This document shows, piece by piece, positions 35,682 through 56,667 of a DNA stretch of 56,685 nucleotides. Source of the DNA: a bacterium (GTDB lineage: Bacteria; Verrucomicrobiota; Kiritimatiellia; RFP12; UBA1067). The position numbers were made by a program, and so were the translations under genes. Positions within the stretch are counted from its first letter, which is position 1; every line of letters begins with the position of its first letter. The notes below the pieces were generated by a model. The model did no database searches. It saw nothing but the letters and a program-made list of their open reading frames with translations, and had not been told where the DNA came from. The stretch covers positions 1 to 56,685 of the forward strand of contig JBAXCC010000001.1 in the NCBI GenBank assembly GCA_037141675.1, read 5' to 3'.

Positions 35682-35704
35682 CGCATTTCTCCTTTTTCTC
35701 GTGA

Positions 35705-39329: not shown

Positions 39330-39370
39330 GCACGTGTTGAGCCTTCCCAAGCTCTGGAACAATACTGAAA

Positions 39371-40807: not shown

Positions 40808-43800
40808 ATGTTCAGTATGGACATGCAGATACGGTCGCAGGATCATAAAGGAATTAACCTATTCTTGATGTTGTCTCTTGGGATGCTTGCTTTGCTCGTT
40901 TACAGCTTAACACTTGTGAAAGGTGTTTTCCCAGGTGAGTCGGCTTGGTTGATCGCAACGTATACTGGTCTGGAACCTCTTGAAATTCCTGTACATCCGA
41001 TATGGGGTGTCATTGTTAAAGCGGTTGAATCCCTTCCTGTGTTCTCTTTACCGTTACGTTTGAATTTTATCAGTGTAATTTGCTCAGTCCTTTCGGTGAT
41101 GCTCATCTTCCGTTTAATTTATTTCTTTATCAATGATATTATTACGGAAGAATATTCTTTGGTTTATGCACCGCGTGTTGCGCGATTTGCAGGTGTGCTG
41201 GCGGCGGTGACCTATCTTTTTTCGGCGCCGGTATGGCAGGCCGCGACACGTTTGCAATATCAGAGTTTTGATTTGTTATTGTTGCTATTGGCAGTCCAAC
41301 TGTTGCTCTGGTATAGGAGTTACCAGAACAAACTCATTCTCTTGCTCTTTATTCTTCTTTCAGGCGTTGGTGCAGTTGAGTCTGTTATTTTTATTCCTGC
41401 AATGCCCTTCTTAGTTATATTTGCACTGTATGCCATGGTTCGTCGACAGCACCCTTTTGCGACCATTGTGTGGCTTTCCTTCGGGATATTGGTTGTCATG
41501 GTTGGAACATGGTACTTTGTTGTGCGCCAGTTTGTAGCGACTGCGGATCTAGAGGCATTGGAAATTACCGGCGTGGTGGATGTCATGGTGCGTATGGCCC
41601 GTATGCAGGGCAAGCAACTTCTTTCCGGGCTGCCTCGTGTAGGCTGGATGATTCTGTTACTGACGGGCTTTGTGCCTTGGTTTGCCGCGCTGATGGCTTC
41701 GTTTCGTGCCTTGAACAATGAACGTACGGTAAGCCAGTATTTGTTACATATCACGTTGACGATGATGGTCATCCTTGGGCTGGCTAACGCGGTGTTTTCA
41801 CCCTGGCAAATATTGAAGCCTTATGGTCGCTTGCCGGTCTGTGCGTATGCGATGTTATCCATGACGGCTGGCTATCTATTTGCGTATTGGTGCCTGTTGT
41901 TGAGCGTGAAACGTCAGAACGTGGGCAAAGAATCCGCGGATCAGATTGACAAAATTGGAGAATGGTTGGGCATCTTGATAGCCTATCCATTTGCTCTTAT
42001 CGTGGTGGTTTCATCTCTGTTTAATGCGTTTGAGTGCGCCAATCCGAAGCGCGGAACATTTGCTGACCGTTGCGCAAAGGAAATCCTTGATAGGATGGGG
42101 ACACGTACATGGTTTGTGACGGACGGTACCCTTGACACGCATCTCCAGATTATGGCCAAGCAACGTGGGCAAGAATTCAATTTGGTGTGTCTGCAAAAGG
42201 ATATGAGCCGCTATTATCTGAAGTCGCTTTGGGAGTTGGTTGAGAAGAAGAAACTCTTTTCGGGTCCAGATTCGCAGCGTATGAAGAGCACGTTGGAATT
42301 AGGGGTTTTGCCCTTTATCCAAGACTGGTTTGCGCTTGACCCTCAGATTGAGAAAAAGGTGGCGGTTTTCAGTATTCCTGACTTCTGGTATACGTCCGGA
42401 ATGACGCCTGTTCCCGATTATTTCTTCTTCACGGGGTGTCGTGATATTGCGACCATCGATGATAAAAAATTATTAGAAGATTATATGGCTTTCTGGAAAA
42501 GTATGGAGCCTGAACTGGGCAGCGGAAAGCGTTTTTTCAATAAGGATGTTATGGATCCAGTCGTCGGACTTCGTAAGCATTTGACTCGGCACATGGGGTT
42601 TGTCGCAAACAATGTGGGTGTTTTGCTGGAGGATTTAAAGAATGATAAGGATGCTTTAACGATATATAATTATGTGAGAAAGACCATTGACCCCGAGAAT
42701 ATCTCTGCTCTCTTTAACCGTTTTGAAATGGCGAACCGCGGGTCAGCTGTGACGCTTGCGACGAAGGGACAAATTGAGCGCGAAATGCGGGATTTTACGA
42801 ATGGCTTAAAGACGCAGTATCCACTCTGGTCCCTGTCCCGGTATTACGGCTATGTGCGCAATCCGCAACTTTTTGTCCGACAGGGGTGGGACTGGGCTTT
42901 GTCCGGGCAGACGGGCGCAGCATTGGCTGGCATTGGTCGCGCGATCCGGTTGTTACCGGATTCGGAAAAGAATGCAGCCTTGAGTGCACTGGCCGCTGTT
43001 TATGCCCTCGCAAATGATAAACAGAAGACGGCTTCAGTATATCAAAGTATGATTGCCAACGATCCAGGCAATCGAACGGCCATGTTGGGTCTTGCTCGTT
43101 TGGCTGTGCAGGACGGCGCATTTGATAAAGCAAAAAGTTGGCTTGAAAAAGCGACAAAAAGCGATGACAAGCGTGGTACATTTGGCGTGGAATGGGCAGC
43201 GATATACCTGATGAACAATGACCTTGCGAATGCGCGTCTTTCGTTGCAGGAAGCTACGGATCTTCAACCCAAAAACCTTCAGGCATGGGCTATGTTGGCG
43301 TTGTTACAGATTCAACAAAACCAAATGGAAGAAGTTGAAAAAGTTATTCTTTCCCGCATGGAAAATATTGCAGGCACGGCTGATAACTACTTCATTCAAG
43401 TTACCCGTGCGCAAGTGGCTCTGAAAAAGGGCAAGAAATTCTTGCGTACTGCGCGTGAAGCTTTTATTCGTGCATCGCTATTGCGTCCGGATATAACAGG
43501 TGTAAAAGATATGATTCTTCAGATTGATATTGAACTGAATGATCAATCTGCCGCGGAACTGCATGCGCGTCAAGTATTGCGCACAAACCGCAAGCACGCA
43601 CTTGCAAACTATGTGATGGGGTCGTTGAGATTGCAGGAAGGTGAATATGGTGAGGCTGAAGATTTCCTGCGTCGTAGTGTTGAAACGAATCCAACTTCTG
43701 CTGCGCTGAACGATCTTGCGGAAGTCTTGCGCCGTATTAAGAAGCTGGATGATGCTGAACGTTTTGCTCGTGAGTCCATTAAAAAGAATCCAGAACTGTA

Positions 43801-44071
43801 TGTGGCCTGGGAGACCTTGGGCTGTATTCTCTTGGAAGCAAATAGAAATCTCGATGAGGCTGAAAGCGCGGTGAACAAGGCCTTAGTGTTGTATAACGAT
43901 GATGTTCGTATCAAGATTACATTGGCTCGCATTCAGTATCGCCGTGGCAATCTTGAAAAGGCACGCGAGACCCTTGGCCAGGTTAAGGTTCGCAAAAACG
44001 AGCTGACTAAGTTTGACTCGGAAGTCATGAATCGGCTCTCTACTGAAATTTCTAAACCGCGGGCAAAGTAA
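40808..44071 (+). CDS. Large polytopic membrane protein with C-terminal TPR array (GT-C-like, DUF2723/TMEM260-type architecture suspected)
   Basis: 1087 aa. About 10 hydrophobic segments in the first ~400 aa, with a GES...HP segment near TM1 (FPGESAWLIATYTGLEPLEIPVHP). The C-terminal ~350 aa are TPR-like. Family assignment is inferred from architecture. Confidence 0.6.
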   Translation: MFSMDMQIRSQDHKGINLFLMLSLGMLALLVYSLTLVKGVFPGESAWLIATYTGLEPLEIPVHPIWGVIVKAVESLPVFSLPLRLNFISVICSVLSVMLIFRLIYFFINDIITEEYSLVYAPRVARFAGVLAAVTYLFSAPVWQAATRLQYQSFDLLLLLLAVQLLLWYRSYQNKLILLLFILLSGVGAVESVIFIPAMPFLVIFALYAMVRRQHPFATIVWLSFGILVVMVGTWYFVVRQFVATADLEALEITGVVDVMVRMARMQGKQLLSGLPRVGWMILLLTGFVPWFAALMASFRALNNERTVSQYLLHITLTMMVILGLANAVFSPWQILKPYGRLPVCAYAMLSMTAGYLFAYWCLLLSVKRQNVGKESADQIDKIGEWLGILIAYPFALIVVVSSLFNAFECANPKRGTFADRCAKEILDRMGTRTWFVTDGTLDTHLQIMAKQRGQEFNLVCLQKDMSRYYLKSLWELVEKKKLFSGPDSQRMKSTLELGVLPFIQDWFALDPQIEKKVAVFSIPDFWYTSGMTPVPDYFFFTGCRDIATIDDKKLLEDYMAFWKSMEPELGSGKRFFNKDVMDPVVGLRKHLTRHMGFVANNVGVLLEDLKNDKDALTIYNYVRKTIDPENISALFNRFEMANRGSAVTLATKGQIEREMRDFTNGLKTQYPLWSLSRYYGYVRNPQLFVRQGWDWALSGQTGAALAGIGRAIRLLPDSEKNAALSALAAVYALANDKQKTASVYQSMIANDPGNRTAMLGLARLAVQDGAFDKAKSWLEKATKSDDKRGTFGVEWAAIYLMNNDLANARLSLQEATDLQPKNLQAWAMLALLQIQQNQMEEVEKVILSRMENIAGTADNYFIQVTRAQVALKKGKKFLRTAREAFIRASLLRPDITGVKDMILQIDIELNDQSAAELHARQVLRTNRKHALANYVMGSLRLQEGEYGEAEDFLRRSVETNPTSAALNDLAEVLRRIKKLDDAERFARESIKKNPELYVAWETLGCILLEANRNLDEAESAVNKALVLYNDDVRIKITLARIQYRRGNLEKARETLGQVKVRKNELTKFDSEVMNRLSTEISKPRAK

Positions 44072-44072
44072 T

Positions 44073-45554
44073 ATGCGAATAATCAGTGCAACATGTGCCC
44101 TTCTAACGGTTCTCTGCTCACAGGCAGAGGAAAGATGGGGCAATAATCTTTCTCCAAACAGCGTTTCATCTGCACGGAACCTGCCTTCTGAACTAACGGC
44201 TTCCAATTTGCTCTGGGAGGTTCGCCTTGGCACTCATCAATATTCAATCCCGACGATCGATCGAGGGAAGGTCTATTTAGGCATCAATGATCTTGGTGTC
44301 CAGCGTGATGGCTATCAACCCTCAGGCGGTGGAGCTATTGTCTGCCTTGACTTGAAGACGGGGAATGCGGATTGGACATTGGCGGTGCCGCGTGTGGCGG
44401 ATGGAACTACGGCACCAAGTTACTTTGACCATTGGAAGTGCGGAATTTGTTCAGGACCTGTGGTTGTGGGTGATCGTATCTATCTGGTTGGAAATCGCGG
44501 AGATGTTATATGCTTGGATCGGAAAGGGCAGTCAGATGGAAATGCCGGCCCGTTTACTGATGAACATAGCTATATGGGGTTGCCTGATCGCGTGACGTTG
44601 ACACCTCAGGACGGCGATATCATTTGGCGGTTTGACTTCCGTAAGGAATGTTCGGTGCTGGTGCATGATACGTGTGCTAGCACAATTCAACTGATTGACG
44701 GGATGCTTTTTGTATGCACGTCCAATGGAACAGATCGTCGCCATCAGCAACCCATTGCCCCAGAAGCGCCAGCGCTTATTGTGTTGGATGCCGAGACTGG
44801 GGTGCTCATCGCACGCGATGCGGAAGAAGAGATGGGAAAGAATATTTTGCATGGCAATTGGTCTTCTCCTACTTCTGGAGATGTGAAAGGGCTGAAACTC
44901 GTTTTCTTTACAGGTGGCGATGGGATCATGTATGCGTTTGAACGTCCGAAGCGATCTGGTGATGGGAAGGTGCAGCATTTGAAAAAGGTGTGGCAGGCCG
45001 ATATCAATCCGCCGCATTTCCGCATGAATGAGCAAGGTCAGAAAAGGATTTACTCCACGTGGCAAAATAAGCGTCCGGATGGGCCAAGTGAGGCCATTGG
45101 AACACCTGTTTTTGCGGATGGACGTGTTTATGTCGCGACAGGCCAGAGTCCTGTTTATGGACTGGGTGCAGCATGTCTAACCTGCTTTGATGCTGAGACA
45201 GGCGCTGTTGTCTGGCGCACGGAAAAGGTGAATCGCACACTCGCAACGATTGCGTTGCAGGATGGGATCATCTATTTGCCGGATCAAAATAACTCCCTTC
45301 ACGCATTTGATGCCAAGACTGGTGAGACCCTCTGGACGCACGACCTCACGTCAACGGTCTGTTATGCCAATGCCCTGGTTGCCGATGGCAAGGTCTATAT
45401 CGGAACTGAACGTGGCGACTTCTGGATTTTGAAGACGGGGCGCCAGAAAGAGGTCCTGTTTCACACGCGCCTACCAAGTGCTCCGGTCACGGCTGTTGCC
45501 TCGGATGGACTGCTGCTGATACCCCTCCAAAATCGAATTCAATGTTATCGGTGA
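44073..45554 (+). CDS. Exported PQQ-like (BamB-like) beta-propeller repeat protein
   Basis: Signal peptide MRIISATCALLTVLCSQA. Repeated blades: GKVYLG..., IVCLDLKTGNADW, DRIYLVGNRGDVICLD, GRVYVATG..., CFDAETGAVVW, LHAFDAKTGETLW, DGKVYIGT. ATG lies 1 nt after the upstream stop. Confidence 0.8.
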   Translation: MRIISATCALLTVLCSQAEERWGNNLSPNSVSSARNLPSELTASNLLWEVRLGTHQYSIPTIDRGKVYLGINDLGVQRDGYQPSGGGAIVCLDLKTGNADWTLAVPRVADGTTAPSYFDHWKCGICSGPVVVGDRIYLVGNRGDVICLDRKGQSDGNAGPFTDEHSYMGLPDRVTLTPQDGDIIWRFDFRKECSVLVHDTCASTIQLIDGMLFVCTSNGTDRRHQQPIAPEAPALIVLDAETGVLIARDAEEEMGKNILHGNWSSPTSGDVKGLKLVFFTGGDGIMYAFERPKRSGDGKVQHLKKVWQADINPPHFRMNEQGQKRIYSTWQNKRPDGPSEAIGTPVFADGRVYVATGQSPVYGLGAACLTCFDAETGAVVWRTEKVNRTLATIALQDGIIYLPDQNNSLHAFDAKTGETLWTHDLTSTVCYANALVADGKVYIGTERGDFWILKTGRQKEVLFHTRLPSAPVTAVASDGLLLIPLQNRIQCYR

Positions 45555-45601
45555 GCCCCCCGCCCGCGGAGTTGGAATAAACGAAGGATTAGCTTCTTAA
45601 A

Positions 45602-45683
45602 TTAAGAGTTAAAAGTTAAACGTTGAAAGTTAAAAGTTTGAACGCTTAACGCTCAACGCCCAACTCTTAATGCTTAAGTTATA
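45602..45683. repeat. Degenerate heptamer-periodic array (about 11 units of AMGYTNA) that folds as a long imperfect hairpin
   Basis: Units GAGTTAA AAGTTAA ACGTTGA AAGTTAA AAGTTTGA ACGCTTA ACGCTCA ACGCCCA ACTCTTA ATGCTTA AGTTATA (45606-45683). Outer stem TTAAGAGTT (45602-45610) pairs with AACTCTTAA (45662-45670). Inner stem 45621-45637 pairs with 45642-45658 (13 of 17) around loop TTGA. Confidence 0.75.
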
Positions 45684-45696
45684 GACGAGGTCACTT

Positions 45697-47475
45697 GTGA
45701 ATATTTCGCTTTTCACGATCACGTGTGTAGTGCTTCCCTGTTGGTTGATTGCCCATGCGCAACCGAATGTCATTGTCATGTTGGCGGATGATGCTGGTTG
45801 GGGCGATTATCATTCAAGTGGAAACATGAATGTTGAGACACCACAGATTGATTCCATTGCTAAAAACGGGGTTAGCTTTGAAAACTTTTATGTCTGTTCT
45901 GTCTGCTCCCCAACACGTGCCGAGTTTTTGACAGGGCGATATTATTTGCGGACCGGTGTGCATGGGGTCTCGTTGGGTGCCGAGCGCTTGAATCTTGACG
46001 AGCGTACCATTGCGGATTCCTTTAAGGCTGCTGGATATGCGACAGGCGCCTTTGGTAAATGGCACAATGGCAGCCAATATCCGTACCATCCTCGTGCACG
46101 AGGATTTGATGAATTCTACGGATATACTGCAGGTCATTGGGGTGAATATATTGACCCGCCGCTTGAGCGCAATGGGCGTATGGAACGCGCGAAAGGTTAT
46201 ATCGTCGATGCCTGCACCGATGAGGCGATTCGCTTTATCAAGAAGAATAAAGATGCTCCTTTTTTCTGTTATGTTCCATTTACAACCCCGCATTCCCCAT
46301 GGGCTGTACCAGAGTCTTACTGGACTCGGTTTAAAGATAAAGCGCTTAAGCAGCAACGGCCTGGGGGTGATGAAACCCTTGACTTTACGCGTTGTGCGCT
46401 CGCAATGGTTGAAAATCAGGATTGGAATGTGGGCCGCATCTTGAAAACGCTGGAGGAACTGAATATTTCCGATAAGACGATCGTCGTCTATTTTTCAGAC
46501 AATGGTCCGAATTCGGGGCGTTGGAATGGCGGGATGAAGGGCCGTAAGGGAAGTGTGGACGAGGGAGGTCTGCGTTCAGTCTGCTATTTGCGGTGGCCGT
46601 CTAATGTGAAGAGCGGACAATCGGTTAATACGATTTGTGGAGCGATTGATTTGATGCCGACGTTGCTCTCATTGGCAGAGGTTAAGCGCGTGGGCGATAA
46701 GCCATTAGACGGCTTAGATGTGTCACCGCTTATGCGTGGGGAAACCGTGAAGTGGAATGACCGTATGATTTTTTCGGTGTGGGGAAAACAGTCCAGTGTG
46801 CGTACGCAACAATATCGGGGGAACGCCAAGGAACTTTATGATATTCAAGCTGATAGAGGGCAGACAAAAAATGTTGCTGGCGAGCAATCGGCAGCAGCAA
46901 ATAAATTGGCGATAGCGTTGAATAATTGGAAATTGAGCCTCCCGGATTTAACGGACGATGCGAAAAAAAATGGGACGGTCGATCCTCGAAAGATTGATAT
47001 TGGGTATAACGTTTTCCCAGTTACGATGCTCCCGGCTCGAGATGGTGAACCATCTGGCGGTATCACGCGCAGTTCAAGTGCACCCAACTGCTCCTATTTC
47101 ATAAATTGGACTTCACCACAGGACAAGGTAGTGTGGAATGTTGACGTTCAACAGGAAGGGGATTACGAAGTTACGATTGACTATACGTGTCCTGCTTCAG
47201 ATTTGGGGTCAATCGTTGAGCTTTCTCTTAATGAAGCGAGTCTCAAAGCTAAAATTACGGAAGCATGGAATCCGCCGCTGTATACAAACCAAGATACCGT
47301 GCCACGTCCTAAGGCCGAATCACACATGAAACCCTTTAAAAATATGAAGTTGGCGAATATGCATCTTAAGAAGGGACGCGGCGAGTTGACCATACGCGCG
47401 CTGGAAGTTCCAGGGGAGACGGTCATGGATCTTCGTCGGTTAACCATAACGCTTATAAAAAAGGAAACACGATGA
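45697..47475 (+). CDS. Sulfatase (formylglycine type) with extra C-terminal beta-sandwich-like domain
   Basis: Signal peptide, DDAGWGD, CxPxR motif CSPTR at 45904-45918 (VCSVCSPTRAEFLTGRY), and a ~130-aa non-catalytic tail. GTG start is preceded by GAGG. Confidence 0.9.
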   Translation: MNISLFTITCVVLPCWLIAHAQPNVIVMLADDAGWGDYHSSGNMNVETPQIDSIAKNGVSFENFYVCSVCSPTRAEFLTGRYYLRTGVHGVSLGAERLNLDERTIADSFKAAGYATGAFGKWHNGSQYPYHPRARGFDEFYGYTAGHWGEYIDPPLERNGRMERAKGYIVDACTDEAIRFIKKNKDAPFFCYVPFTTPHSPWAVPESYWTRFKDKALKQQRPGGDETLDFTRCALAMVENQDWNVGRILKTLEELNISDKTIVVYFSDNGPNSGRWNGGMKGRKGSVDEGGLRSVCYLRWPSNVKSGQSVNTICGAIDLMPTLLSLAEVKRVGDKPLDGLDVSPLMRGETVKWNDRMIFSVWGKQSSVRTQQYRGNAKELYDIQADRGQTKNVAGEQSAAANKLAIALNNWKLSLPDLTDDAKKNGTVDPRKIDIGYNVFPVTMLPARDGEPSGGITRSSSAPNCSYFINWTSPQDKVVWNVDVQQEGDYEVTIDYTCPASDLGSIVELSLNEASLKAKITEAWNPPLYTNQDTVPRPKAESHMKPFKNMKLANMHLKKGRGELTIRALEVPGETVMDLRRLTITLIKKETR

Positions 47476-50357
47476 ATCAGGTACTCAATTTAATGGCGTC
47501 GAACAACATCGGAACTGGAAATAGACGCATGAAATGCTATTACATTGCTTGGGGGGTGGCTTTATTCGCTTCATTGATAGTAAATTCTGCGGATTTGAGC
47601 GAGATGGTCTTCAATGGCAGGGACGACGGCACAAAGGAGATGTCGCTACTCAAAAAGGATGTCAATCAGGTGTCGATCCGTTTTCTGATTCGTCCCAAGA
47701 ATGGGCAAGAGGGAATGACCTCTATTCTTTCGTGCGATGGCTGGCAGGAAGGTGCCCTGCATCTGCTGTATGTGGATGAACGTTCGATTCAGTTTAGTCT
47801 GAATGGCTTAAATGTCGATGGCGAAGGTCATGATGTGCGTACTCGCATTTCGGTGCCGGCAGGCTCGCAGACGTATGTGCATGTGGCCATTGTCTTTGAT
47901 GGTGTTGGCAAGACGATGACGTTCTACAAGAATGGCAACAAGACCAAGCAGTGCAAAATTAATGTTGCGCCAAAGATTAATTTACTGAGGCGTAGTTTTT
48001 TAGGATCGTGGGAGGGCAAGTCCCGCTTCTTCAAGGGGCGCCTGGCTGACTTTAAGATCGAGGAACGGCTGATGACTGCGGAGGACGTGCGGCAGGAGGC
48101 TGAGTCCTATAAGCTTGCAGAAGCCCTTCCAAAGCCTGCTGATCACTCGGCGGAATTAAAAGTGGCTAAGAAAATGTTACTGGATAAAGGCATTCAGCAC
48201 GTTGTTTTTGTCAAACGCAATACCTATACGGCGAATCACTACTATACCGAGTTTATCAATAGTGCTTGGTTGCCGGGTGGAAATATATGCGTGTTGGATG
48301 TAGAGACGGGGAAAGTGCGTGATGTCGTGTCAGGGCTCGAGGGTGGGGCATTCGAACGCTTTGATCTTTCTTATGATGCAAAACGTATTGTCTTTGCTTG
48401 GAAGGGCAACCCCGAGCAAGGGCATCGCATTTATGAAGTGAACGTGGATGGGACAGGGCTTCGTCAGTTGACCTTCCCGCAAGCGGATGAAGCGGAACTT
48501 ATCAAGAAATATCGTACGGGCTATCACCATGGCACGGATGATCTGCAACCGTGCTATCTGCCGGATGGCAGCATTGCGTTTGTTTCCACCCGTTGCCAGT
48601 TCGGTATTTTGTGCGATACGCCTGACAATTTTACGACTACCGTTTTGCACCGCATGGATGCCGACGGCAAGAACATCAAGCAGTTAAGCCGCGGTTCGGT
48701 CAGCGAAACCATGCCCTCCATCATGCCAGATGGACGTATTCTGTATACGCGCTGGGAATATGTGGATAAAGGGGCGGTGAGTGTGAAATGCCTCTGGGCT
48801 ATGCGTCCGGACGGGACAGCGTCAAGTGAAGTGTATGGCAATGATATCGCGCTGCCGCCAACCCTCAATATGGGGCGCGTGATTCCAGGAACCCCTAACC
48901 AGTATGTCGTGTGCGGTGTGCCGCATTATCCTCAAAATAATTTCGGCACGATCATTCGTCTCGACATGAACAAGAATATTCGAACCCGCGAACCCATGAC
49001 CTACATGACGCCTCAGGTGGACGTGCGAGGTGAGGGCGGATGGGAGTTTTTTGATACGGAAACAGAAAAATGGAGTAGAAACGGACATGGACTTGGACCG
49101 CTCTTCTCGGAACCCTATCCGCTGTCAATGGATTGCTTCCTGGTTTCCTACAAGCCTACGGATGAAGGAGCGGCCACTCAGGCCAATGGCTACGGGCTCT
49201 ATCTGCTGAATGACAAGGGGGCCACGACGCTCCTCTACCGCGATCCCGAGATTTCATGCTGGCGCGCAATCCCGTTGGTTTCGCGAAAGGTGCCTCCCGT
49301 GCTCTCCTCTCCGAGGAACAAGGAGCTAGCTGCGAAAAACCTTGCGCACTGCATGGTTCAGAATGTCTATCACGGACTTTCTGGCGTTACCCCGGGTACC
49401 ATCAAGTATATTCGTGTGCTGGAACAGATGGGACGGCCATGGGCTGCGCAAATGGCGCGAGCGCCCTTGCCGAATGGCAAGACGGCTATGTTCCCGGAGG
49501 ATTACGATCAGCAGCATATCTGCGTCTCAAAAGACACGGCCCTTGGGTTGAAGGTGCAGCATGGCATTGTTCCTGTTGAGGCGGATGGTTCAGCGAATTT
49601 CCTCGTACCCGCGACTGGCAATGTATTCTTTCAGGTTTTAGATGCCCAGTATATGGCGGTTCAAACAGAACGCACCTTTGTGGATTATATGCCCGGTGAG
49701 TCTCGTGCGTGCATTGGCTGTCATGAAACACCGGAGGATGCGACGCGTTACAGGGAGATAGAATCTTCTAATAAAGGGCAGCCGCTTGCCTTTAAACGTA
49801 GCCCGTCCATGCCTGGACCTCAACCTGGCGAGAAGCAGGGAGGCCGTCCATTGCACTACGAGACAGATGTTCAACCGGTTTTTGACAAGCATTGTGTGAG
49901 TTGCCATTCCGGCAATCAGCCCAAGGGAGGAATGAGTCTGTCAGGCGAACGGACCCGCATGTTTAGTGTGTCCTACGAATCACTCGTGCCGGAGCGAAGG
50001 AAAAGTCCGCGCTTGGATCGCGGCGTTCTGGGCCTTGTCATCGGAGAGAATCATCCGAAGACCGGCAATGTCAGTTATCTGCCGGCTTACTCGCTCGGGT
50101 CAACGACGGCACTGCTGTCCGGAATCATTGGGTGTCCGACCTGCGCGCAGGATCCTAAAGGACTTGTTGCAAAGCATGCCGAGGTCGCAAAGAAGATCAC
50201 ACAGGAGGAACGTCTTCGCGTGACAAACTGGATTGACACGAACTGCCAATACTATGGCAGTTACTGGTATCGTCGTAACAAAGAAGTCTTCGCGACGCAT
50301 CCCGACTTCCGTCGTGTACCGACGTATGAAGATGCCTTGCGCACAATTGCCCAATAA
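47472..50357 (+). CDS. Exported LamG-like lectin + TolB-like beta-propeller + dihaem c-type cytochrome protein (HzsA-like paralogue 1)
   Basis: ATGA overlap with the sulfatase stop. Alternative ATG 47529 gives signal MKCYYIAWGVALFASLIVNSA. LamG-like ...FFKGRLADFKIEERLMTAEDV, propeller motifs PDGSIAFVSTR and PDGRILYTRWEYVDKG. CxxCH at 49710-49724 (CIGCH) and 49893-49907 (CVSCH). Family naming is from memory and was not searched. Confidence 0.7.
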   Translation: MNQVLNLMASNNIGTGNRRMKCYYIAWGVALFASLIVNSADLSEMVFNGRDDGTKEMSLLKKDVNQVSIRFLIRPKNGQEGMTSILSCDGWQEGALHLLYVDERSIQFSLNGLNVDGEGHDVRTRISVPAGSQTYVHVAIVFDGVGKTMTFYKNGNKTKQCKINVAPKINLLRRSFLGSWEGKSRFFKGRLADFKIEERLMTAEDVRQEAESYKLAEALPKPADHSAELKVAKKMLLDKGIQHVVFVKRNTYTANHYYTEFINSAWLPGGNICVLDVETGKVRDVVSGLEGGAFERFDLSYDAKRIVFAWKGNPEQGHRIYEVNVDGTGLRQLTFPQADEAELIKKYRTGYHHGTDDLQPCYLPDGSIAFVSTRCQFGILCDTPDNFTTTVLHRMDADGKNIKQLSRGSVSETMPSIMPDGRILYTRWEYVDKGAVSVKCLWAMRPDGTASSEVYGNDIALPPTLNMGRVIPGTPNQYVVCGVPHYPQNNFGTIIRLDMNKNIRTREPMTYMTPQVDVRGEGGWEFFDTETEKWSRNGHGLGPLFSEPYPLSMDCFLVSYKPTDEGAATQANGYGLYLLNDKGATTLLYRDPEISCWRAIPLVSRKVPPVLSSPRNKELAAKNLAHCMVQNVYHGLSGVTPGTIKYIRVLEQMGRPWAAQMARAPLPNGKTAMFPEDYDQQHICVSKDTALGLKVQHGIVPVEADGSANFLVPATGNVFFQVLDAQYMAVQTERTFVDYMPGESRACIGCHETPEDATRYREIESSNKGQPLAFKRSPSMPGPQPGEKQGGRPLHYETDVQPVFDKHCVSCHSGNQPKGGMSLSGERTRMFSVSYESLVPERRKSPRLDRGVLGLVIGENHPKTGNVSYLPAYSLGSTTALLSGIIGCPTCAQDPKGLVAKHAEVAKKITQEERLRVTNWIDTNCQYYGSYWYRRNKEVFATHPDFRRVPTYEDALRTIAQ

Positions 50358-50404
50358 GGTAATATATTACCCAAAATGTATTTGAGATGTCTAAAGGGGA
50401 AATC

Positions 50405-53400
50405 ATGAAAAATGGGAAATTTGTTTTTTTAATGGGTCTGAGCAGTTTTTTATTTTCAGGCATTGCTCTTGCACAAAAAGAATTGTCACTGGATGACGTG
50501 CGTAAGCTGGGCGATGCCGCTGCTGTTCGTTATGTGAGTCCGATGGTGACGGTGAAGACGCCGGGGTATAAGGTTGAAGTTGAGGCGGACTTACGTGGTG
50601 CAAAGATTGTGACGCTGATTGTGACCGACGGAGGGAATGGCTATGGGTGTGACCATACGGATGTGTTGGAGCCTCGGTTCATTGGCACATTCGGTGAAAA
50701 GAAGCTGACGGACCTGAACTACATTCATGGAGAGACGGGGTGGGGGACGATCAACAAAAACAAAAGCGTGGCTGGAAGTCCTCTGAAGGTTCTTGAACGA
50801 ACCTATTTGAATGGCATCGGCATACATTCGCCTGGCGTATTGATGTATGCGCTACCAGAGGGAATCGAATCATTCAAGGCTGTTGTGGCCTTAGATAATT
50901 CAGGGACATCGCAGGGCAACTCGGCTCCCAGTTCCGTTCAGTTCATTGTCTATGCCGGAACTCCTCCTGAGACCATGCTTAACGCATTTCGCCTGAAGGC
51001 CCTTCCTGATCTGGAAGCGAAGGCTCGGATGGAAGAGATGATTGCCAAGCACGGGGACTCTTTTGCGATGAAAGAATATATGATGGTGCAGCGTGAAATC
51101 ACCACGCCGCCACGTTCGCAGGGAGGTGTTGCCGATAATGAGACTCGTGCTGCGCAGGCCTTGAATAGCCAAGCGACTATCTGGAAGAGCGATCGCGATC
51201 CATTAGATGTGCGTGTCCGTCGCCTACGTGCATTGTATGAAGATTTGAAAGGTTCTGTGAATCTATCCTCCTACGAAGCTGGCCTTGTTGAGGTTGAAAA
51301 GACCTGCAAGGAGTTACCGCTGACCGCAATGGATAAGCGTATAGAGGCCTATCTTCGCGCGGACGAATTGTGCCGCGAAATCGCCCTTAAGAATCCGCTG
51401 CTGGCTAAAATTGAAAAGTTGCTCTTTATTACGCGCGAAGCGCTCAAAGCGGATGAATTCGGCTTTGGTAACCACATGTGCGATCAATATTTCGGATTTC
51501 ATGCAACACGTTTGGGCCAAGTCAAGGGGAATGGACTTTTTGTCCTTGAGAAGCCTTTCAGTAAAGACCAGAAGGTTGTCAATCTGCTGGAAAACAGTGT
51601 CATACAGAATGGTCGTATGAAGGGCGAGAAGCTTGGGGATGGTGGTTTTTTGCGTCCAGATCTCTCGTTTGATGGCAAGCGCATCCTCTTCAGCTATACG
51701 GACGGCATCGGACCTGTCAGGAAATGGGATGAGAAGAATTGCTTCCACGTCTTTTCTGTCAACAGTGACGGAACCGACTTGCGCATGATTACCGACGGGG
51801 AGGTTAATGACTTATTCCCCACGTGGTTGCCTAATGGACGTGTTGTATTTATCACTGAACGGCGTGGCGGATATGGTCGCTGTCATGGACGTCCAGTGCC
51901 GAGCTTTACGTTGCATTCGATGTATGATGATGGTACGGACATTGTTCGTTTCAGCCCGCATGAGACGAACGAGTGGCTTCCCAGTGTCGATCAAGCTGGC
52001 ATGATCGTCTATACGCGCTGGGACTATGTTGACCGCGGGTTCAATCAGGCGCACCATCCCTGGATTACCTATCCCGATGGACGTGACTCCCGTGCGATCA
52101 ATGGCAATACCCACGTTTCGCAGCGCACGGCTCCGCACATGATCATGAATGTGCGGGCCATTCCAGACTCGCCCTGCTATGTGGGCTTGGCTTCAGGACA
52201 TCATACGGAATCGCGCGGGTCATTGGTTTGGATTGACCCACGTATCCCAGATGACGATTCGATGGCTCAGATCAAACGTATTACGCCGGATCAGCTTTTC
52301 CCCGAAGCAGAATTTTATATCACAAAGGCATCAGGTGCTTATGCATCACCTTGGCCACTCTCTGAAAAGTATTTATTGTGCGTGTATGATGGATACGGCA
52401 ATGCTCAGTATGGGGAGATTGTTGATGTGAAACGCAATTACGGAATTACCCTGCTGGATGCCTTTGGCAATCGTGTACTGATCTATCGTAATCCGCTGAT
52501 ATCCTGCCTTGATCCGATGCCGATGATGGCGCGCAAGCGTCCGCCTGTGTTGCAGCACGGTACGTTGGTGGGATTGCCCCCGAATGCAGATGGGACAAAG
52601 CCAACGCCTATTCCTCCGGACAAGCTTCCGAAGATGGCGAAAATGGGACTGATGAATGTTTACAATTCTCGCCGCCCATTCCCGCCCGATACAAAGATAA
52701 CCGCGTTGCGCGTCTGGCAGGTCTTACCCAAGACAACGCCGATCGCCAATAATCCGCGCATGGGCATGGGGGATCAGAAACCGTCGCGCATTTGCCTTGG
52801 CACTGTTCCCGTTGACCCGGATGGAAGCGCCTTTTTTGAAGTCCCGGTCGGGGCTCCAATCTTTTTACACGCCTTGGGTGAAGATGGTTCTGCGGTTCAA
52901 GGTATGCGCAGTATCACCTATACCTTCCCGGGTGAAACACTGATGTGCAATGGATGCCACGATCAGCGTGTCGGTTCTCAACCCCCTCGCATTCAGCCCA
53001 CGGCTATGAAGCGTGCACCATCTGTCATCAAGCCAGAGGGCGACGGGACAAACCCCTTCAATTATCCGAGGCTTGTTCAACCAATTCTTGACAAGAATTG
53101 CGTAGCCTGTCATGACCAGAAGCGCGCTGAAGGCAAAAAGACGCCGGATCTTGCCAAAGGCGATTGGAAGAAGAATGCTCACAAGTTCTACACTTCGTTC
53201 AATCAGTTGAAACCCTACGTCATGTTTTATGATAGCGCCTCGTTTACTCAGTCCTATACGGAGCCAGGAAAATTCGGCGCACGCGGATCAAAGCTTTATC
53301 CGATGCTCCGTAAGGGGCATCATGATGTCAAACTCACGGATGATGAATGGCACCGTCTTATTATATGGCTCGATTCCAATTGCACATTTTTTGGGCATGA

Positions 53401-53455
53401 GGCAGAGATCGACAAGCAAGCAGCAGGCGAGATCGTTCCGATTCCGATGTATTAA
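50405..53455 (+). CDS. Exported NPCBM-like + TolB-like beta-propeller + dihaem c-type cytochrome protein (HzsA-like paralogue 2)
   Basis: Signal MKNGKFVFLMGLSSFLFSGIALA (ATG 50405 after AGGGGA; alternative ATG 50387). NPCBM-like LTDLNYIHGETGWGTINKN...YLNGIGIHSPGVLMYAL...FKAVVALDN...VQFIVYAG, plus YTRWDYVDRG. CxxCH at 52946-52960 (CNGCH) and 53099-53113 (CVACH). Confidence 0.7.
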   Translation: MKNGKFVFLMGLSSFLFSGIALAQKELSLDDVRKLGDAAAVRYVSPMVTVKTPGYKVEVEADLRGAKIVTLIVTDGGNGYGCDHTDVLEPRFIGTFGEKKLTDLNYIHGETGWGTINKNKSVAGSPLKVLERTYLNGIGIHSPGVLMYALPEGIESFKAVVALDNSGTSQGNSAPSSVQFIVYAGTPPETMLNAFRLKALPDLEAKARMEEMIAKHGDSFAMKEYMMVQREITTPPRSQGGVADNETRAAQALNSQATIWKSDRDPLDVRVRRLRALYEDLKGSVNLSSYEAGLVEVEKTCKELPLTAMDKRIEAYLRADELCREIALKNPLLAKIEKLLFITREALKADEFGFGNHMCDQYFGFHATRLGQVKGNGLFVLEKPFSKDQKVVNLLENSVIQNGRMKGEKLGDGGFLRPDLSFDGKRILFSYTDGIGPVRKWDEKNCFHVFSVNSDGTDLRMITDGEVNDLFPTWLPNGRVVFITERRGGYGRCHGRPVPSFTLHSMYDDGTDIVRFSPHETNEWLPSVDQAGMIVYTRWDYVDRGFNQAHHPWITYPDGRDSRAINGNTHVSQRTAPHMIMNVRAIPDSPCYVGLASGHHTESRGSLVWIDPRIPDDDSMAQIKRITPDQLFPEAEFYITKASGAYASPWPLSEKYLLCVYDGYGNAQYGEIVDVKRNYGITLLDAFGNRVLIYRNPLISCLDPMPMMARKRPPVLQHGTLVGLPPNADGTKPTPIPPDKLPKMAKMGLMNVYNSRRPFPPDTKITALRVWQVLPKTTPIANNPRMGMGDQKPSRICLGTVPVDPDGSAFFEVPVGAPIFLHALGEDGSAVQGMRSITYTFPGETLMCNGCHDQRVGSQPPRIQPTAMKRAPSVIKPEGDGTNPFNYPRLVQPILDKNCVACHDQKRAEGKKTPDLAKGDWKKNAHKFYTSFNQLKPYVMFYDSASFTQSYTEPGKFGARGSKLYPMLRKGHHDVKLTDDEWHRLIIWLDSNCTFFGHEAEIDKQAAGEIVPIPMY

Positions 53456-53477
53456 CGGGAAGACTCGGGATGATGGA

Positions 53478-53643
53478 TTTTTGAAACTCGAAACTTGAAA
53501 CTGGGTGTCCGGCGGCTCACCGAGACAATTCGCCCTATCTGCTTCGCACAGGTCAACTTTCTGATCCGAAGTCGGTAGGGCGAACCGTCTCGGTGAGCCG
53601 CAAAGAGAAATGCCGTTTTTGTGAATTTTGAGCTTTCAAACTT
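53478..53643. repeat. Nested imperfect palindromic element (REP/MITE-like)
   Basis: 26-nt arms GCGGCTCACCGAGACAATTCGCCCTA (53512-53537) and TAGGGCGAACCGTCTCGGTGAGCCGC (53576-53601) are complementary at 24 of 26 positions, with a 38-nt spacer containing CTTCG/CGAAG. The left flank has YGAAACT x3 (53482-53502). The right flank has a partly complementary TTTCAAACTT segment. Confidence 0.75.
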
Positions 53644-53799
53644 AAAGCCCTAGGCCGCCAAAAACCAAAACACTTTTTTTGCCAATTTATGAGACTAGGC
53701 AGGTAGGGGAGTACTTGTTATACTTTAGGCTAATGTGTTCTTCTTTTTTGATTCTGGGTCTTTGCTTTCGTAGATAATTGGACACAGCTAGGAGTCGTT

Positions 53800-56667
53800 A
53801 TGCAGCAATCGATTAGGTTTTCAATCAATATTTTTGCCTTGTTGACATTGTCATTTGTCTGCTGGGATGTGAGAGCAGAGACAGTCCTCGAACGCGACTG
53901 GATGCGCCAGTTGGAAAAGCGCTTTGGTGCTGCAGAGAAGCCCGGAGCGGCAGTCACGCCTGCACAGGACGCCTCCCATGCGGTGGATGGCAAGACAGAT
54001 GAGCCCTGGGGGTTTCATACGGAGTTGGAGGAGAATCCCTGGTGGCAAGTTGACTTGGGTGAAACCAGAAAAATTGATCGCGTTGTCATTCACAATCGCG
54101 GCGATGCACACCAGGAACGCGCCAGTCGTCTGAAGATGCTTGTCTCGATAGACGGCAAAACATTCGAAGATCTCTTCCAGAACACGGGGAAATCTTTCGG
54201 TACTGGAGAAACGGCGCTCTCTATTCCCTGTGCAGATAAAGAGGCTCGCACGATCCGTCTCCAATTGCCTGGTAAAACCTATTTCCATTTGAATGAAGTA
54301 CAAGTCTTTGCTGTTGGAAGCACGAACAATCTTGCTCTCAAAAAACCTGCGACGCAGTCGAGCGTGTCGCAATGGTCAAAGGCTTCGCCTGACTCTGAAA
54401 AAGTCAGTCCAGTGCCCTTATTGAAGGCCGCGTCAAAAAAGGAACTTGAACGCGGGCAGGCTTTGGCAAAGGAGTTTGCGCTGTTGGGCAAGGATAAATC
54501 TGGTGCACCTGCGGCGGCAAAAAAATATGAGGATACGATCGCGGCATTCTTGGTGCCGGCAACGGACGAGATGGCTGCTTGGAAAAGCTATTATTTCGGG
54601 GTGCGAACGGCCGTTCGCGAGTTATGCATGGCGAATCCACTTTTGGATTTTGATAAACTGCTTGTCACGAAGCTCATAGAGCCAGGCTGGATATATCATA
54701 TGTCTGACCAATATTATGGATGGTGGTCAAGACCAGGAGGAGGCATATATATCCTCGAAGATTTCAAGAGTGGTTCTCCTAAGGAGACCTGTCTCACATC
54801 GTCGTTTGCGCCTGGGTGTTTTCAACGTCCGACACTCTCCTATGATGCCAAGAAAATACTCTTTGCGTATTGTAAATTTTACGAGAGTCTTGCTCAGAAT
54901 CCAAACAAAATTGATAAACCAAATATGCCGGAGGATTCGTATTATCACCTGTTCGAAATGAACGTGGATGGCTCAGGGCTGAAGCAGTTGACATGGGGCA
55001 AGTATAATGATTTTGACGGGCGCTATTTGCCGGACGGACGCATTGTCTTTCTCTCAACGCGACGCGGCCATGCCATCCAATACACACAGAAGCACGTCGA
55101 TGCTACACAAAAGGACAAGGAGTTGCCAGAGTCTTATGTACGCTGCGGAGGTGTCACTCGTCGTCCTGTAGCGGTCTACACGCTGCATACGATGGCCGCA
55201 GATGGTTCTGCCATGAAGACCATCTCGCCCTTTGAGATGTTTGAGTGGACGCCGGCTGTTGCCAATGATGGACGCATTATCTATGCGCGTTGGGATTATG
55301 TGGATCGCAGCAATCAGCCCTACATGGGATTGTGGAGCACGAATCCAGATGGGACTAATCCATCACACGTCTTTAAAAATTACACGGAGAGTCCGAATAC
55401 CGTCTTTGAGGCGGTTTCTATTCCGAATTCGCGGAAGTTTGTCTTCACAGGAGGCGCCCATCACGCGAACACAGGAGGGAGCCTAGTTTTGTTGGATCTG
55501 TCGGCTGGGGAAGATGGCCCAGCGCCGATGACTCGCCTGACGCCTGAAGTGCCTTTCCCTGAGACAGAGACGAAACCTCGTGACAAGCGTTATCTCACAC
55601 ATTACTACGCATCACCGTGGCCCTTGTCGGAGACGACCTTCCTGACGGCATGGAGCTGGGAGGGGTTGGTTTCTCATTTTCAACAGAGTCCTGGAAACGG
55701 TATGGGCGTATATTATTACGACGTGCATGGTAATCTGGAGCTCCTGTGTGTGGATGAAGCGTATCAGGTTCAGCATCCCATACCCTTGCGTGCTCGTCCT
55801 GTGCCTCCGATTATTCAGAGCCAGTTACCAGCCAATGCTCCGCTGAAAGGAACATTCATGTTGTCGGACGTATATAACAGCCGTCAGAAATTCCCTGACG
55901 GGAGCAAGATCACGCACCTTCGACTTGTTGCTGTTCCGCCGAAGACGCATCCGAGGATGAATTCCCCAGAAATTGGACTCACGCATGATGACCCTGGAAA
56001 ATGTGTACTTGGAACCGTGCCTGTCGAGAAGGATGGGTCGGCCTACTTTGAAGCCCCCTCCAATATGACGCTCTTCTTCCAGGCGCTCAACGAGGAGGGC
56101 CTTGTTATCCAGACCATGCGCAGCGCGTCCTATCTTCAACCTGGAAATGTGCTCTCCTGCAATGGTTGCCACGAGGAACGTCATGCAGCCCAGCAGCCCA
56201 TGCTCAAGACCACGCTTGCTTCACAGCGTGCGCCATCGAAAATCACTCCAGAATGTGAAGGAAGCGCGCCCTTCCGCTTTGACCGTCTGGTTTTCCCTGT
56301 ACTGAAGAACACGTGTGTCGCTTGTCATACCGGTAAGGAAAAAGAAAAGTTTGCGTTTTCGCCAGAGCCTTACAAAGCTTGGCAACAATTGACGAAGGCC
56401 GGCAAACCTTCCATAGCCGAATTGGTCTCGCATCAATATCGCTCAATGCCATACTCCACCCCCGGAGAAAACATCGCTACTAAAGCGTCATTGACGCGTC
56501 ATCTACGTGACTTGAAAAAAGAGAAGAAGATCTCGGAAGAAGATTATCGCCGTCTCCTCCTCTGGATGGACATCTATGGGCACTATTTAGGCTCATTCTC
56601 AGAGGAGCAGGAAAAAGAACAAATCGAATTGCTGAAAAACATGGATGTTATCCAGCATTCGACATAG
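53800..56667 (+). CDS. Exported F5/8-type-C (discoidin) + TolB-like beta-propeller + dihaem c-type cytochrome protein (HzsA-like paralogue 3)
   Basis: AGGAG RBS 6 nt upstream and signal MQQSIRFSINIFALLTLSFVCWDVRA. Discoidin-like AVDGKTDEPWGFHTELEENPWWQVDLGETRKIDRVVIHNR...FHLNEVQVFAV, plus YARWDYVDRS. CxxCH at 56158-56172 (CNGCH) and 56314-56328 (CVACH). Confidence 0.7.
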   Translation: MQQSIRFSINIFALLTLSFVCWDVRAETVLERDWMRQLEKRFGAAEKPGAAVTPAQDASHAVDGKTDEPWGFHTELEENPWWQVDLGETRKIDRVVIHNRGDAHQERASRLKMLVSIDGKTFEDLFQNTGKSFGTGETALSIPCADKEARTIRLQLPGKTYFHLNEVQVFAVGSTNNLALKKPATQSSVSQWSKASPDSEKVSPVPLLKAASKKELERGQALAKEFALLGKDKSGAPAAAKKYEDTIAAFLVPATDEMAAWKSYYFGVRTAVRELCMANPLLDFDKLLVTKLIEPGWIYHMSDQYYGWWSRPGGGIYILEDFKSGSPKETCLTSSFAPGCFQRPTLSYDAKKILFAYCKFYESLAQNPNKIDKPNMPEDSYYHLFEMNVDGSGLKQLTWGKYNDFDGRYLPDGRIVFLSTRRGHAIQYTQKHVDATQKDKELPESYVRCGGVTRRPVAVYTLHTMAADGSAMKTISPFEMFEWTPAVANDGRIIYARWDYVDRSNQPYMGLWSTNPDGTNPSHVFKNYTESPNTVFEAVSIPNSRKFVFTGGAHHANTGGSLVLLDLSAGEDGPAPMTRLTPEVPFPETETKPRDKRYLTHYYASPWPLSETTFLTAWSWEGLVSHFQQSPGNGMGVYYYDVHGNLELLCVDEAYQVQHPIPLRARPVPPIIQSQLPANAPLKGTFMLSDVYNSRQKFPDGSKITHLRLVAVPPKTHPRMNSPEIGLTHDDPGKCVLGTVPVEKDGSAYFEAPSNMTLFFQALNEEGLVIQTMRSASYLQPGNVLSCNGCHEERHAAQQPMLKTTLASQRAPSKITPECEGSAPFRFDRLVFPVLKNTCVACHTGKEKEKFAFSPEPYKAWQQLTKAGKPSIAELVSHQYRSMPYSTPGENIATKASLTRHLRDLKKEKKISEEDYRRLLLWMDIYGHYLGSFSEEQEKEQIELLKNMDVIQHST

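Follow-up and report, generated by a model that had tools for sequence, protein, structure and literature searches.

HzsA, the alpha subunit of hydrazine synthase (Kuenenia stuttgartiensis, PDB 5C2V chain A), is built from an N-terminal propeller, a middle haem domain and a C-terminal cytochrome domain, with two CxxCH motifs. The proximal ligand of its haem alpha-I is Tyr591, which lies four residues past the CxxCH histidine (CSGCHYGSY), while that histidine, His587, is diverted to Zn (PMC12607021, PMC12758564). Homologues in which key HzsA residues are missing have been reported from non-anammox bacteria (Hagglund et al. 2025, PMC12758564); published surveys hold few of them (PMC12758564), and the studies concerned dealt with a few dozen homologues, sorted into clades I-IV, whose genes lie together with fused HzsBC-like genes (PMC12758564, PMC10732223). 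For another group of proteins, the PSCyt families of the Planctomycetota-Verrucomicrobiota-Chlamydiota (PVC) bacteria, it was proposed in 2017 that c-type cytochromes with carbohydrate-binding modules (CBMs) near sulfatases have a role in carbohydrate metabolism, “mirroring” glycoside hydrolases (GHs) (He et al., PMC5615132). Here, we compare with these systems three tandem genes, paralogues 1, 2 and 3, that encode HzsA-like proteins with two haem-binding motifs and three different lectin-like N-terminal modules. They lie on a 56,685-bp stretch of DNA (the window), which is a complete contig (JBAXCC010000001.1) of a Kiritimatiellia metagenome-assembled genome (MAG) at NCBI.

All three genes are read from the forward strand. 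Paralogue 1 (47472..50357, +; 961 aa, or 943 aa if translation starts at Met19, nt 47526; NCBI MEI7945079.1) consists of a signal peptide, a Laminin_G_3/ConA-like module (Pfam; aa 64-206, nt 47661-48089), an HzsA-type propeller, an HZS_alpha middle domain (Pfam; aa 642-752, nt 49395-49727) and a class-I-cytochrome-like C-terminal domain. Paralogue 2 (50387..53455, +) is an open reading frame (ORF) of 1022 aa from its first ATG and 1016 aa from its second (nt 50405), the latter being the length of an ortholog at 87% identity; a signal peptide is followed by an NPCBM/CBM51-like module (Pfam; aa 105-190, nt 50699-50956), a helical linker, the propeller, HZS_alpha (Pfam; aa 800-859) and the haem-II region. 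Paralogue 3 (53800..56667, +; 955 aa; NCBI MEI7945081.1), which stops 18 nt short of the contig end, has the same order with an F-type lectin (F5_F8_type_C) module (Pfam; aa 56-175, nt 53965-54324) in front of the helical linker (aa ~197-277), and its HZS_alpha match spans aa 734-792. An earlier note on this DNA, made from the sequence alone, had drawn four ORFs here, a CxPxR sulfatase and then the three genes on the same strand, and its coordinates proved exact to the base; the N-termini of the three paralogues, which it had described as signal-like, and that of the sulfatase all look like Sec signal peptides when judged from sequence by eye. At NCBI, MEI7945079.1 is called “LamG-like jellyroll fold domain-containing protein” and MEI7945081.1 “discoidin domain-containing protein”, names taken solely from the N-terminal modules.

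Each paralogue contains exactly two CxxCH motifs, located where the earlier note had placed them: CIGCH (nt 49710-49724, aa 747) and, in the class-I-cytochrome-like domain, CVSCH (nt 49893-49907, aa 808) in paralogue 1; CNGCH (nt 52946-52960, aa 854) and CVACH (nt 53099-53113, aa 905) in paralogue 2; and CNGCH (nt 56158-56172, aa 787) and CVACH (nt 56314-56328, aa 839) in paralogue 3. The spacing between the two is 61, 51 and 52 residues, respectively. Because the motif is so rare, with 15 occurrences in the 113,366 aa of the six-frame translation of the whole window, six of them at equivalent positions are not a product of chance. The paralogues are mutually ~28% identical and can be aligned end to end, with both haem motifs and ~100 other columns invariant among the three and with LS(Y/F)D(A/G)K, Y(T/A)RW(E/D)YVD and DGSA.F as shared segments. 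Both CxxCH motifs are likewise invariant in 40 sequences of the paralogue-3 type, 40 of the paralogue-1 type and 40 diverse representatives at 24-48% identity. Across those representatives, Arg, Cys, Tyr, Asp, His, Arg, Asp and Ser residues of the core are also invariant; in paralogue 1 they correspond to R374/C381 (Arg-x6-Cys), the YxRWxYxD segment, H485, an Arg, and D705/S707 of the DGSA motif, and in paralogue 3 the invariant Arg, Cys and His residues are R421, C449 and H554/H555. These patterns predict two covalent c-type haems per protein. A search of the contig for cytochrome c maturation (Ccm/Ccs) genes found none; related Kiritimatiellales encode c-type cytochrome enzymes, namely nrfAH and ccoNOP (PMC7356697).

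The assignment of this core to the HzsA superfamily, an architecture that the earlier note had proposed from the propeller and the two haem motifs, is borne out by sequence, profile and fold comparison. HZS_alpha (PF18582, cut-off 26.6 bits) matches paralogues 1, 2 and 3 at 66.6, 64.4 and 73.0 bits, which places all three in the superfamily. Paralogue 1 matched the HzsA chain 5C2V_A in a phmmer search over five collinear segments (E=1e-12), and a core profile built from six sequences matched HzsA at E=2e-28. A phmmer search with the middle of the propeller (aa 327-593), meant to locate the counterparts of Cys303 and of the residues around haem alpha-I, gave no match to HzsA. AlphaFold2 models, built for paralogues 1 and 3 on 40-sequence alignments, reached a mean predicted local distance difference test score (pLDDT) of 84.0 and 85.9, respectively, and a predicted template modelling score (pTM) of 0.79 in both cases. 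When these models were compared with the PDB by Foldseek, 5C2V_A was the first match for both over ~840 aligned columns, with E=3e-29 and a template modelling (TM) score of 0.64, normalised to the target, for paralogue 1 and E=2e-26 and TM 0.58 for paralogue 3. The models and motifs thus have the N-terminal propeller, middle haem domain, C-terminal cytochrome domain and pair of CxxCH motifs that define the HzsA fold. A second tier of matches comprised TolB propellers for both models, galactose oxidases for paralogue 3 and the sialidases NanB/NanC for paralogue 1; their root-mean-square deviations of 15-25 A mean that they share domain composition and not spatial architecture.

Two other cytochrome families were compared with the haem regions. 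The earlier note had seen a resemblance to PSCyt1 (PF07635, cut-off 22 bits) around the second haem motif, and this did not hold: paralogue 1 stayed below threshold (E=0.056, 14.5 bits), searches with the isolated C-terminal domains of paralogues 2 and 3 returned nothing even at E<=10, and we reject PSCyt1 membership on these scores. PSCyt1-3 proteins with PSD domains resemble the paralogues in being exported c-type cytochromes of PVC bacteria that are fused to Laminin_G_3, NPCBM, PA14 or F5_F8_type_C and often found near sulfatases, but they belong to another fold and family, and PSD domains are missing from the paralogues. CCP_MauG (PF03150) likewise gave no match in the three paralogues at E<=0.1.

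A shared fold and two shared haem sites raise the possibility that these are genuine hydrazine synthase alpha subunits, or signs of a cryptic anammox metabolism. The likeness to HzsA extends to the order of propeller, middle and cytochrome domains, the CxxCH positions, a DGS...CxGCH signature and a C-terminal “...W-x-D” helix. Against this, overall identity to HzsA is 14-18%, and as HzsA equivalogs (NCBIfam NF052339) the paralogues scored 63.2, 20.7 and 31.9 bits against a cut-off of 800. The haem-I contexts read CIGCHETPE, CNGCHDQRV and CNGCHEERH in paralogues 1, 2 and 3, such that the +4 position taken by Tyr591 in HzsA holds E, V and H, and Tyr was never among the four commonest residues there in 40 orthologues of the paralogue-3 type. 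HzsB and HzsC are missing: neither hzsBC nor hdh lies nearby, and the contig ORFs that were scanned include no HzsBC-like or CCP/MauG-like gene. A PQQ_2/BamB-like beta-propeller protein with a signal peptide (44073..45554, +; 493 aa; Pfam PQQ_2 86.5 bits), encoded two genes upstream of paralogue 1, was considered as an HzsB-like partner and rejected, as its best PDB matches are pyrroloquinoline quinone (PQQ)-like and BamB propellers rather than HzsB; a haem domain is absent from it. The host is a PVC heterotroph with sulfatases and Rnf, and proteins of this kind are found in heterotrophs that degrade glycans. Of other homologues, Hagglund et al. had come to the same view (PMC12758564). We conclude that the paralogues are not hydrazine synthases, and that the anammox alternative has next to no chance of being correct.

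The paralogues further differ from HzsA in the lectin-like modules, with helical linkers, that they add at the N-terminus. The earlier note had called these LamG/ConA-like, NPCBM-like and F5/8-type-C, and comparisons with Pfam and the PDB agree on all three. The most informative is that of paralogue 3 (F5_F8_type_C 60.2 bits, F5_F8_type_C_2 61.1 bits), whose best PDB matches are the fucolectins 4gwi, 3le0, 3cqo and 1k12 (E down to 1e-12), among them Streptococcus mitis Sm-hPAF, striped-bass FBP32 and eel agglutinin (AAA). It carries the fucose motif H73-X26-R100-X-D102-X4-R107 (nt 54016-54120), which fits H-X(24-26)-R-X-D-X4-R/K, and the spacing of H73, R100 and R107 is that of His52/Arg79/Arg86 in AAA, the triad that hydrogen-bonds the axial 4-OH of fucose (PMC5712786). 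H73, R100 and R107 are invariant in 40/40 orthologues at 47-90% identity, and the acidic D102 is kept in 19/40. No other single finding points as strongly to a real sugar ligand as this invariant triad, which predicts binding of L-fucose.

The module of paralogue 2 is a clear NPCBM match (PF08305, 75.5 bits against a cut-off of 23.9) and resembles part of PDB 7js4, a chain whose deposited name is “F5/8 type C domain protein” (E=2e-10), with a weak match to the CBM51 entries 2vmg/2vmh (E=0.12). The latter we take to derive from mucin-active enzymes of Clostridium perfringens that bind galactose or blood-group antigens. Paralogue 1 has a generic ConA/LamG fold (Laminin_G_3, PF13385, 52 bits against 27.6). 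The N-terminus of its model is all-beta (pLDDT ~85-90), and the second-tier Foldseek matches here were sialidases that combine a lectin domain with a propeller and botulinum neurotoxin (BoNT) Hc jelly rolls; this module is a putative sugar-binder.

We estimated the extent of the family with a HMMER core-profile search of 1.84 billion 50%-identity representatives, in which 2,285 clusters passed E<=1e-30 and 6,322 passed E<=1e-10; when GTDB species genomes were scanned, at least 593 matches were confirmed, Victivallis vadensis being among the carriers. By that scan, the family is spread over Kiritimatiellia, Lentisphaeria/Victivallales, Verrucomicrobiota, all classes of Planctomycetota, Armatimonadota and Hydrogenedentota, and is rare elsewhere. 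HZS_alpha was matched in 40/40 diverse representatives, and some orthologues already bear the labels “HzsA-related protein” or “hydrazine synthase alpha subunit-like” (NCBI, JGI). The core starts anywhere from residue ~20 to residue ~1080, and therefore many members are core-only and others have long N-terminal (sometimes C-terminal) extensions. Lectin-type modules were present in 12/40 long representatives (Laminin_G_3 in 8, F5_F8_type_C in 2, NPCBM in 1 and PA14 in 1); among the same 40, three had a Mala_s_1-like propeller and one a PQQ_2 propeller, 2-4 had additional cytochrome or CCP_MauG/RoxA-like domains and one had an FGE-sulfatase domain, and many of the extensions matched no Pfam family.

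Within this set, the three paralogues belong to separate types. The F5/8-C module is kept in nearly all of the best 120 matches to paralogue 3 (47-60% identity, 93-100% coverage) and NPCBM in ~70 of the best 120 matches to paralogue 2 (46-62% identity), while relatives of paralogue 1 are core-only or bear one or two LamG modules at ~60% core identity. Because the paralogues are far less alike (~28% identical) than each is to full-length orthologues in other phyla (46-62%), they represent three ancient co-located subfamilies. The earlier note had pictured modules being swapped on one conserved core; as a local or recent event this fails, since the orthologues of each paralogue in other phyla keep the same N-terminal module. 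The paralogues are also set apart from the homologues studied previously (PMC12758564, PMC10732223), with which they share the superfamily and the lack of key HzsA residues: they are stand-alone, lectin-fused members of a far larger set in which tandem arrays are common. The text of PMC12758564 makes no mention of carbohydrate. The earlier statement that non-anammox homologues have no assigned function agrees with both studies.

The explanation we favour, tentatively and at somewhat less than an even chance, is that the paralogues are a set of exported haem oxidoreductases, guided by their lectin modules, whose substrates would be glycans that contain fucose or galactose, or the sugars released from these. 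As we picture it, each would be a Sec-exported c-type dihaem protein with a TolB/PD40-like propeller, an HZS_alpha domain holding haem I and a class-I-cytochrome-like domain holding haem II. The N-terminal module would anchor the protein, in the periplasm or at the surface, to glycans with fucose or galactose that may also be sulfated. Haem I would be the reactive centre, placed at the interface of propeller and middle domain by homology to HzsA (PMC12607021), and since Tyr591 is missing it is most simply thought of as His-ligated through its own CxxCH. The invariant Arg, Cys, His, Tyr/Trp and Asp residues of the propeller may line a putative haem-I distal pocket, by analogy with other redox enzymes built on propellers, and haem II would trade electrons with a soluble partner. 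The divergent paralogues would probably cooperate, whether one after another or within one hetero-oligomer. One polypeptide in the family, P0241 (1774 aa), contains two complete HzsA-like cores, seen as two HZS_alpha stretches, an arrangement consistent with paralogues that work together.

Several known enzymes provide analogies for such a design. Optional, subfamily-specific CBMs, with many relatives core-only, form a pattern that is typical of carbohydrate-active enzymes (CAZymes). The fungal enzyme CcPDH (CAZy AA12/AA8), in which a cytochrome, a PQQ dehydrogenase and a CBM1 are joined, oxidises L-fucose and L-galactose and is thus a design precedent for a CBM-guided extracellular redox enzyme that passes electrons to its own cytochrome domain (PMC4332668). 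The F5/8-C plus propeller layout of paralogue 3 recurs in AA5_2 galactose oxidase (CBM32 plus kelch propeller, e.g. 1GOF), and the lectin plus six-bladed propeller layout of paralogue 1 in the sialidases NanB/NanC. The catalytic parts of these analogues are not homologous to the paralogues, with PQQ and haem b or Cu and a Tyr-Cys radical in place of two c-type haems, and the CAZy analogues are fungal and linked to O2 or to lytic polysaccharide monooxygenases (LPMOs), whereas the paralogue family is bacterial and comes partly from anaerobes.

CCP/MauG/RoxA enzymes have one reactive and one electron-transfer haem, and RoxA cleaves an extracellular polymer. Like the paralogues they are exported dihaem c-type proteins, and a few members of the HZS family are fused to CCP_MauG or RoxA-like domains; their fold is different, however, and peroxide or O2 chemistry is not indicated for the paralogues. 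Such fusions bear on a second explanation, in which the proteins are redox or detoxification enzymes for a small molecule (hydroxylamine, NO, peroxide or a sulfur compound), with the lectins serving only to localise them in a glycan matrix (mucus, a capsule, an algal surface). Among relatives, HzsA alone has been characterised and works on NH2OH and NH3 at haem alpha-I (PMC12607021), and “alternative substrates” have been proposed for HZS-like enzymes by Suarez et al. (PMC10732223). In 2/40 representatives and 4 loci, a CCP_MauG-type or HzsBC-like propeller-cytochrome protein is fused to the family member or encoded next to it, and the invariant propeller Cys would suit His/Cys-type or thiol chemistry. 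In the window, however, a CCP or HzsBC partner is absent and the residues specific to HzsA alpha-I are missing, and stable subfamily-specific sugar modules with an invariant fucose triad exceed what a loose localisation tag needs. We therefore consider a small-molecule role unlikely.

The earlier note had put the paralogues “beside sulfatases”, and the upstream gene is indeed an exported formylglycine-type (S1) sulfatase of 592 aa (45697..47475, +; Pfam Sulfatase 190.6 bits, SGSH_C 30 bits). It is of type I (formylglycine), having both the Pfam Sulfatase domain and the C/S-x-P-x-R maturation motif, here CSPTR (aa 70-74, nt 45904-45918), and it reaches no specific NCBIfam equivalog. The extra beta-sandwich-like tail that had been ascribed to it exists (~160 aa, nt 46990-47475), but its hits to CBM_35, DUF5077 and Golvesin_C are sub-threshold (E=1.7e-4, 22 against 28 bits). 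In the same way, the ATGA overlap between sulfatase and paralogue 1 (47472-47475) is present in the DNA, with AGGA 7-10 nt upstream, but it does not represent conserved translational coupling, because in 87%-identical orthologues translation begins at the counterpart of Met19, leaving no overlap, and because two genes intervene in a syntenic relative. The locus of that relative (L001; OW818680.1, a 6.1-Mb genome), whose paralogue 1 too begins at the Met19 counterpart, has the order TMEM260-like/TPR gene, PQQ_2 propeller, sulfatase, LamG-HZS, NPCBM-HZS, F5/8C-HZS. An AraC regulator and an opposite-strand gene stand between its sulfatase and paralogue 1, a 675-aa LamG protein is added after paralogue 1, and an unrelated 842-aa surface-type protein follows paralogue 3.

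A survey of 88 related loci (+/-10 kb, ~830 neighbouring ORFs) showed that family members commonly occur together: 19 of the loci have tandem arrays of 2-6 members, usually from different subfamilies and in several cases with 4-bp overlaps. Proximity to sulfatases did not emerge as a general rule, however. Sulfatases occurred in 14 of the 88 loci and made up 18-19 of the neighbouring ORFs (about 2%), leaving 74/88 loci with none within 10 kb, and although 10/16 sulfatases lay within three genes of a family member, this weak bias comes from a count that is itself biased by incomplete flanks. HZS_alpha is fused to an FGE-sulfatase domain (PF03781) in proteins from two unrelated contigs, L009:18941-22886 (+), from a Phycisphaerae MAG, and L010:15307-18507 (-), each 3-6 kb from a paralogue-3-type gene, and the same fusion accounts for the one FGE-bearing sequence among the 40 representatives. 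Through such fusions the HzsA-like core may have a connection with sulfatase maturation, or with some other activity of the FGE fold.

Taken to its full extent, the sulfatase association would make the sulfatase and the three HzsA-like proteins one dedicated unit for sulfated glycans, with desulfation coupled to a haem step and, possibly, redox support for sulfatase maturation. This alternative overlaps with the explanation we favour. It draws on the adjacency of the four genes on one strand, with the possible ATGA overlap, the sulfatase upstream in L001 too, the weak proximity bias and the FGE fusions. It is weakened by the many loci that have no sulfatase, by the two intervening genes and Met19 starts described above, and by a second, unrelated exported sulfatase about 12.6-14 kb upstream of the first (31416-33074 (-) and 33381-37777 (-) region), for sulfatases are simply dense on this contig. 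We hold a dedicated operon of this kind to be quite improbable.

Other neighbours found in the survey would fit a different role, namely that the paralogues are non-catalytic, glycan-anchored cytochromes that serve as electron carriers or docking platforms for periplasmic sugar dehydrogenases (GFO_IDH_MocA, PQQ-like or ThuA-type) or other partners, taking up or giving off electrons, with the propeller as a binding scaffold, as in TolB. Oxidoreductases of the GFO_IDH_MocA family exported by the twin-arginine translocation (TAT) pathway were found in 16 loci, PQQ_2 propellers in ~10 (including the window and L001), ThuA in 2 and HzsBC-like propeller-CCP proteins in 4. The domain around haem II is class-I-cytochrome-like, with weak matches to Cytochrome_CBB3, Cytochrom_C and PccH; some members are named “cytochrome c553” by JGI; and the best fold for the propeller after HzsA is that of TolB, a binding protein. 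But GFO_IDH_MocA genes, frequent as they are, show no proximity bias, for which reason we rejected them as a fixed partner, and no other gene takes that place. A core of ~700 residues that stays ~60% identical from phylum to phylum and keeps invariant polar residues in its propeller is also under more constraint than a usual carrier. A purely carrying role thus appears doubtful to us.

Among the neighbours, secreted PQQ_2/BamB-like propellers lie near HZS genes at L001:4761-6239, L010:8211-9392 and L092:804-2291, and also in L089, L045 and L028; in 1/40 representatives a PQQ_2 propeller is fused to the HZS core, making the PQQ_2 protein of the window a possible associate of the paralogues. A 538-aa protein (L005:8317-9933, L006:8314-9930) is encoded directly upstream of core-only genes of the paralogue-1 type, with ThuA or GFO_IDH_MocA nearby. 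It has a twin-arginine signal, weak GHL10/GH18 similarity and a GH-like TIM barrel, with no Pfam match above threshold, and was rejected as a fixed partner, as only a few closely related Verrucomicrobia carry it. An esterase of the BD-FAE/Abhydrolase_3/COesterase type directly follows an NPCBM-HZS gene at L091:12904-13920 and L092:13203-14180, a pair absent from the window. A PMT_2 glycosyltransferase (L009:12977-14722) directly follows a paralogue-3-type gene, and in the window a TMEM260-like protein O-mannosyltransferase domain (GT-C-type glycosyltransferase) with a long TPR region (40808-44071, +) stands beside the cluster; with two cases, this adjacency could be chance.

Glycan-type neighbours across the loci comprise GH106, esterases, GH99/GH5-like genes, the GH-like TIM barrel, sulfatases and the TAT-exported GFO_IDH_MocA oxidoreductases, and individual loci are plainly glycan-oriented, such as L091 (GH106, two GFO_IDH_MocA, esterase, NPCBM-metallopeptidase, sulfatase), while other loci are not. 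For lectin-guided haem oxidoreductases acting on glycans, several points count on the negative side, and this heterogeneity is the first of them: the neighbourhoods have no obligatory partner, and the PVC background is itself rich in CAZymes and sulfatases. F5_F8_type_C in PVC proteins has been classed under adhesion and protein-protein contact (PMC5615132), and the LamG and F5/8-C modules of PVC proteins can also serve such contacts. Haem alpha-II of HzsA lacks electronic coupling to the other haems and lies beyond electron-transfer range of them (PMC12607021), and the equivalent of the distal haem-II residue His772 is Lys in paralogue 3 and His in only 24/40 orthologues. Chemistry dependent on O2 or H2O2 is doubtful because the host has Rnf genes and relatives come from guts. 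Finally, our search found no published function or expression record for any family member.

The remainder of the contig is ordinary chromosome, with RuvB, ParA, LeuA/LeuC-type genes, homoserine dehydrogenase and aspartate kinase in addition to the RND efflux, Rnf and second sulfatase genes. The Rnf-type genes (37870-40723, +) encode an Rnf-Nqr membrane subunit, an RnfB-like Fe-S protein and an RnfC-like subunit, which indicate, as far as gene content can, an anaerobic, ferredoxin-based energy metabolism in the host. Beside the second sulfatase are a fused E1 dehydrogenase/transketolase-like gene, a DeoR regulator and a URO-D-family protein, and further upstream a TetR regulator precedes a complete resistance-nodulation-division (RND) efflux system of membrane-fusion protein, AcrB-family pump and outer-membrane factor (24378-30964, +). 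Within the cluster, 29 nt separate paralogues 1 and 2, and a gap of 344 nt (53456-53799) lies ahead of paralogue 3; a promoter-like site with an extended -10 element occurs inside that gap at 53696-53724, and paralogue 3 may be transcribed separately. In a promoter and terminator scan of the region, counts equalled those of shuffled sequence, and the sole match in an Rfam scan was a chance sub-threshold miRNA at 45589-45689.

In the searchable literature, we found no description of lectin-fused HzsA-like subfamilies, of their stable cross-phylum architectures, invariant fucose triad and tandem-array habit, or of the true size of the family. If the glycan-redox explanation is true, thousands of proteins now called “hypothetical”, “LamG-like” or “discoidin domain-containing” would form a new class of polysaccharide-turnover enzymes, spanning Verrucomicrobiota, Kiritimatiellota, Lentisphaerota, Planctomycetota and Armatimonadota and the niches of mucin, algal and plant glycans, including anoxic niches closed to copper- or O2-dependent auxiliary activities. 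A bolder extension, which we think unlikely as it stands, is that HzsA-fold proteins are bacterial c-type-haem counterparts of the CAZy “auxiliary activities”, steered onto glycans by lectins and working as several paralogues without O2 in gut and sediment anaerobes, and that anammox HzsA was recruited from this older and larger glycan-processing family. The paralogue-3 subfamily offers a good experimental entry, as its invariant fucose triad predicts a testable ligand. Whatever the function, the HzsA fold is the core of a very large family, which makes the origin of hydrazine synthase more tractable.

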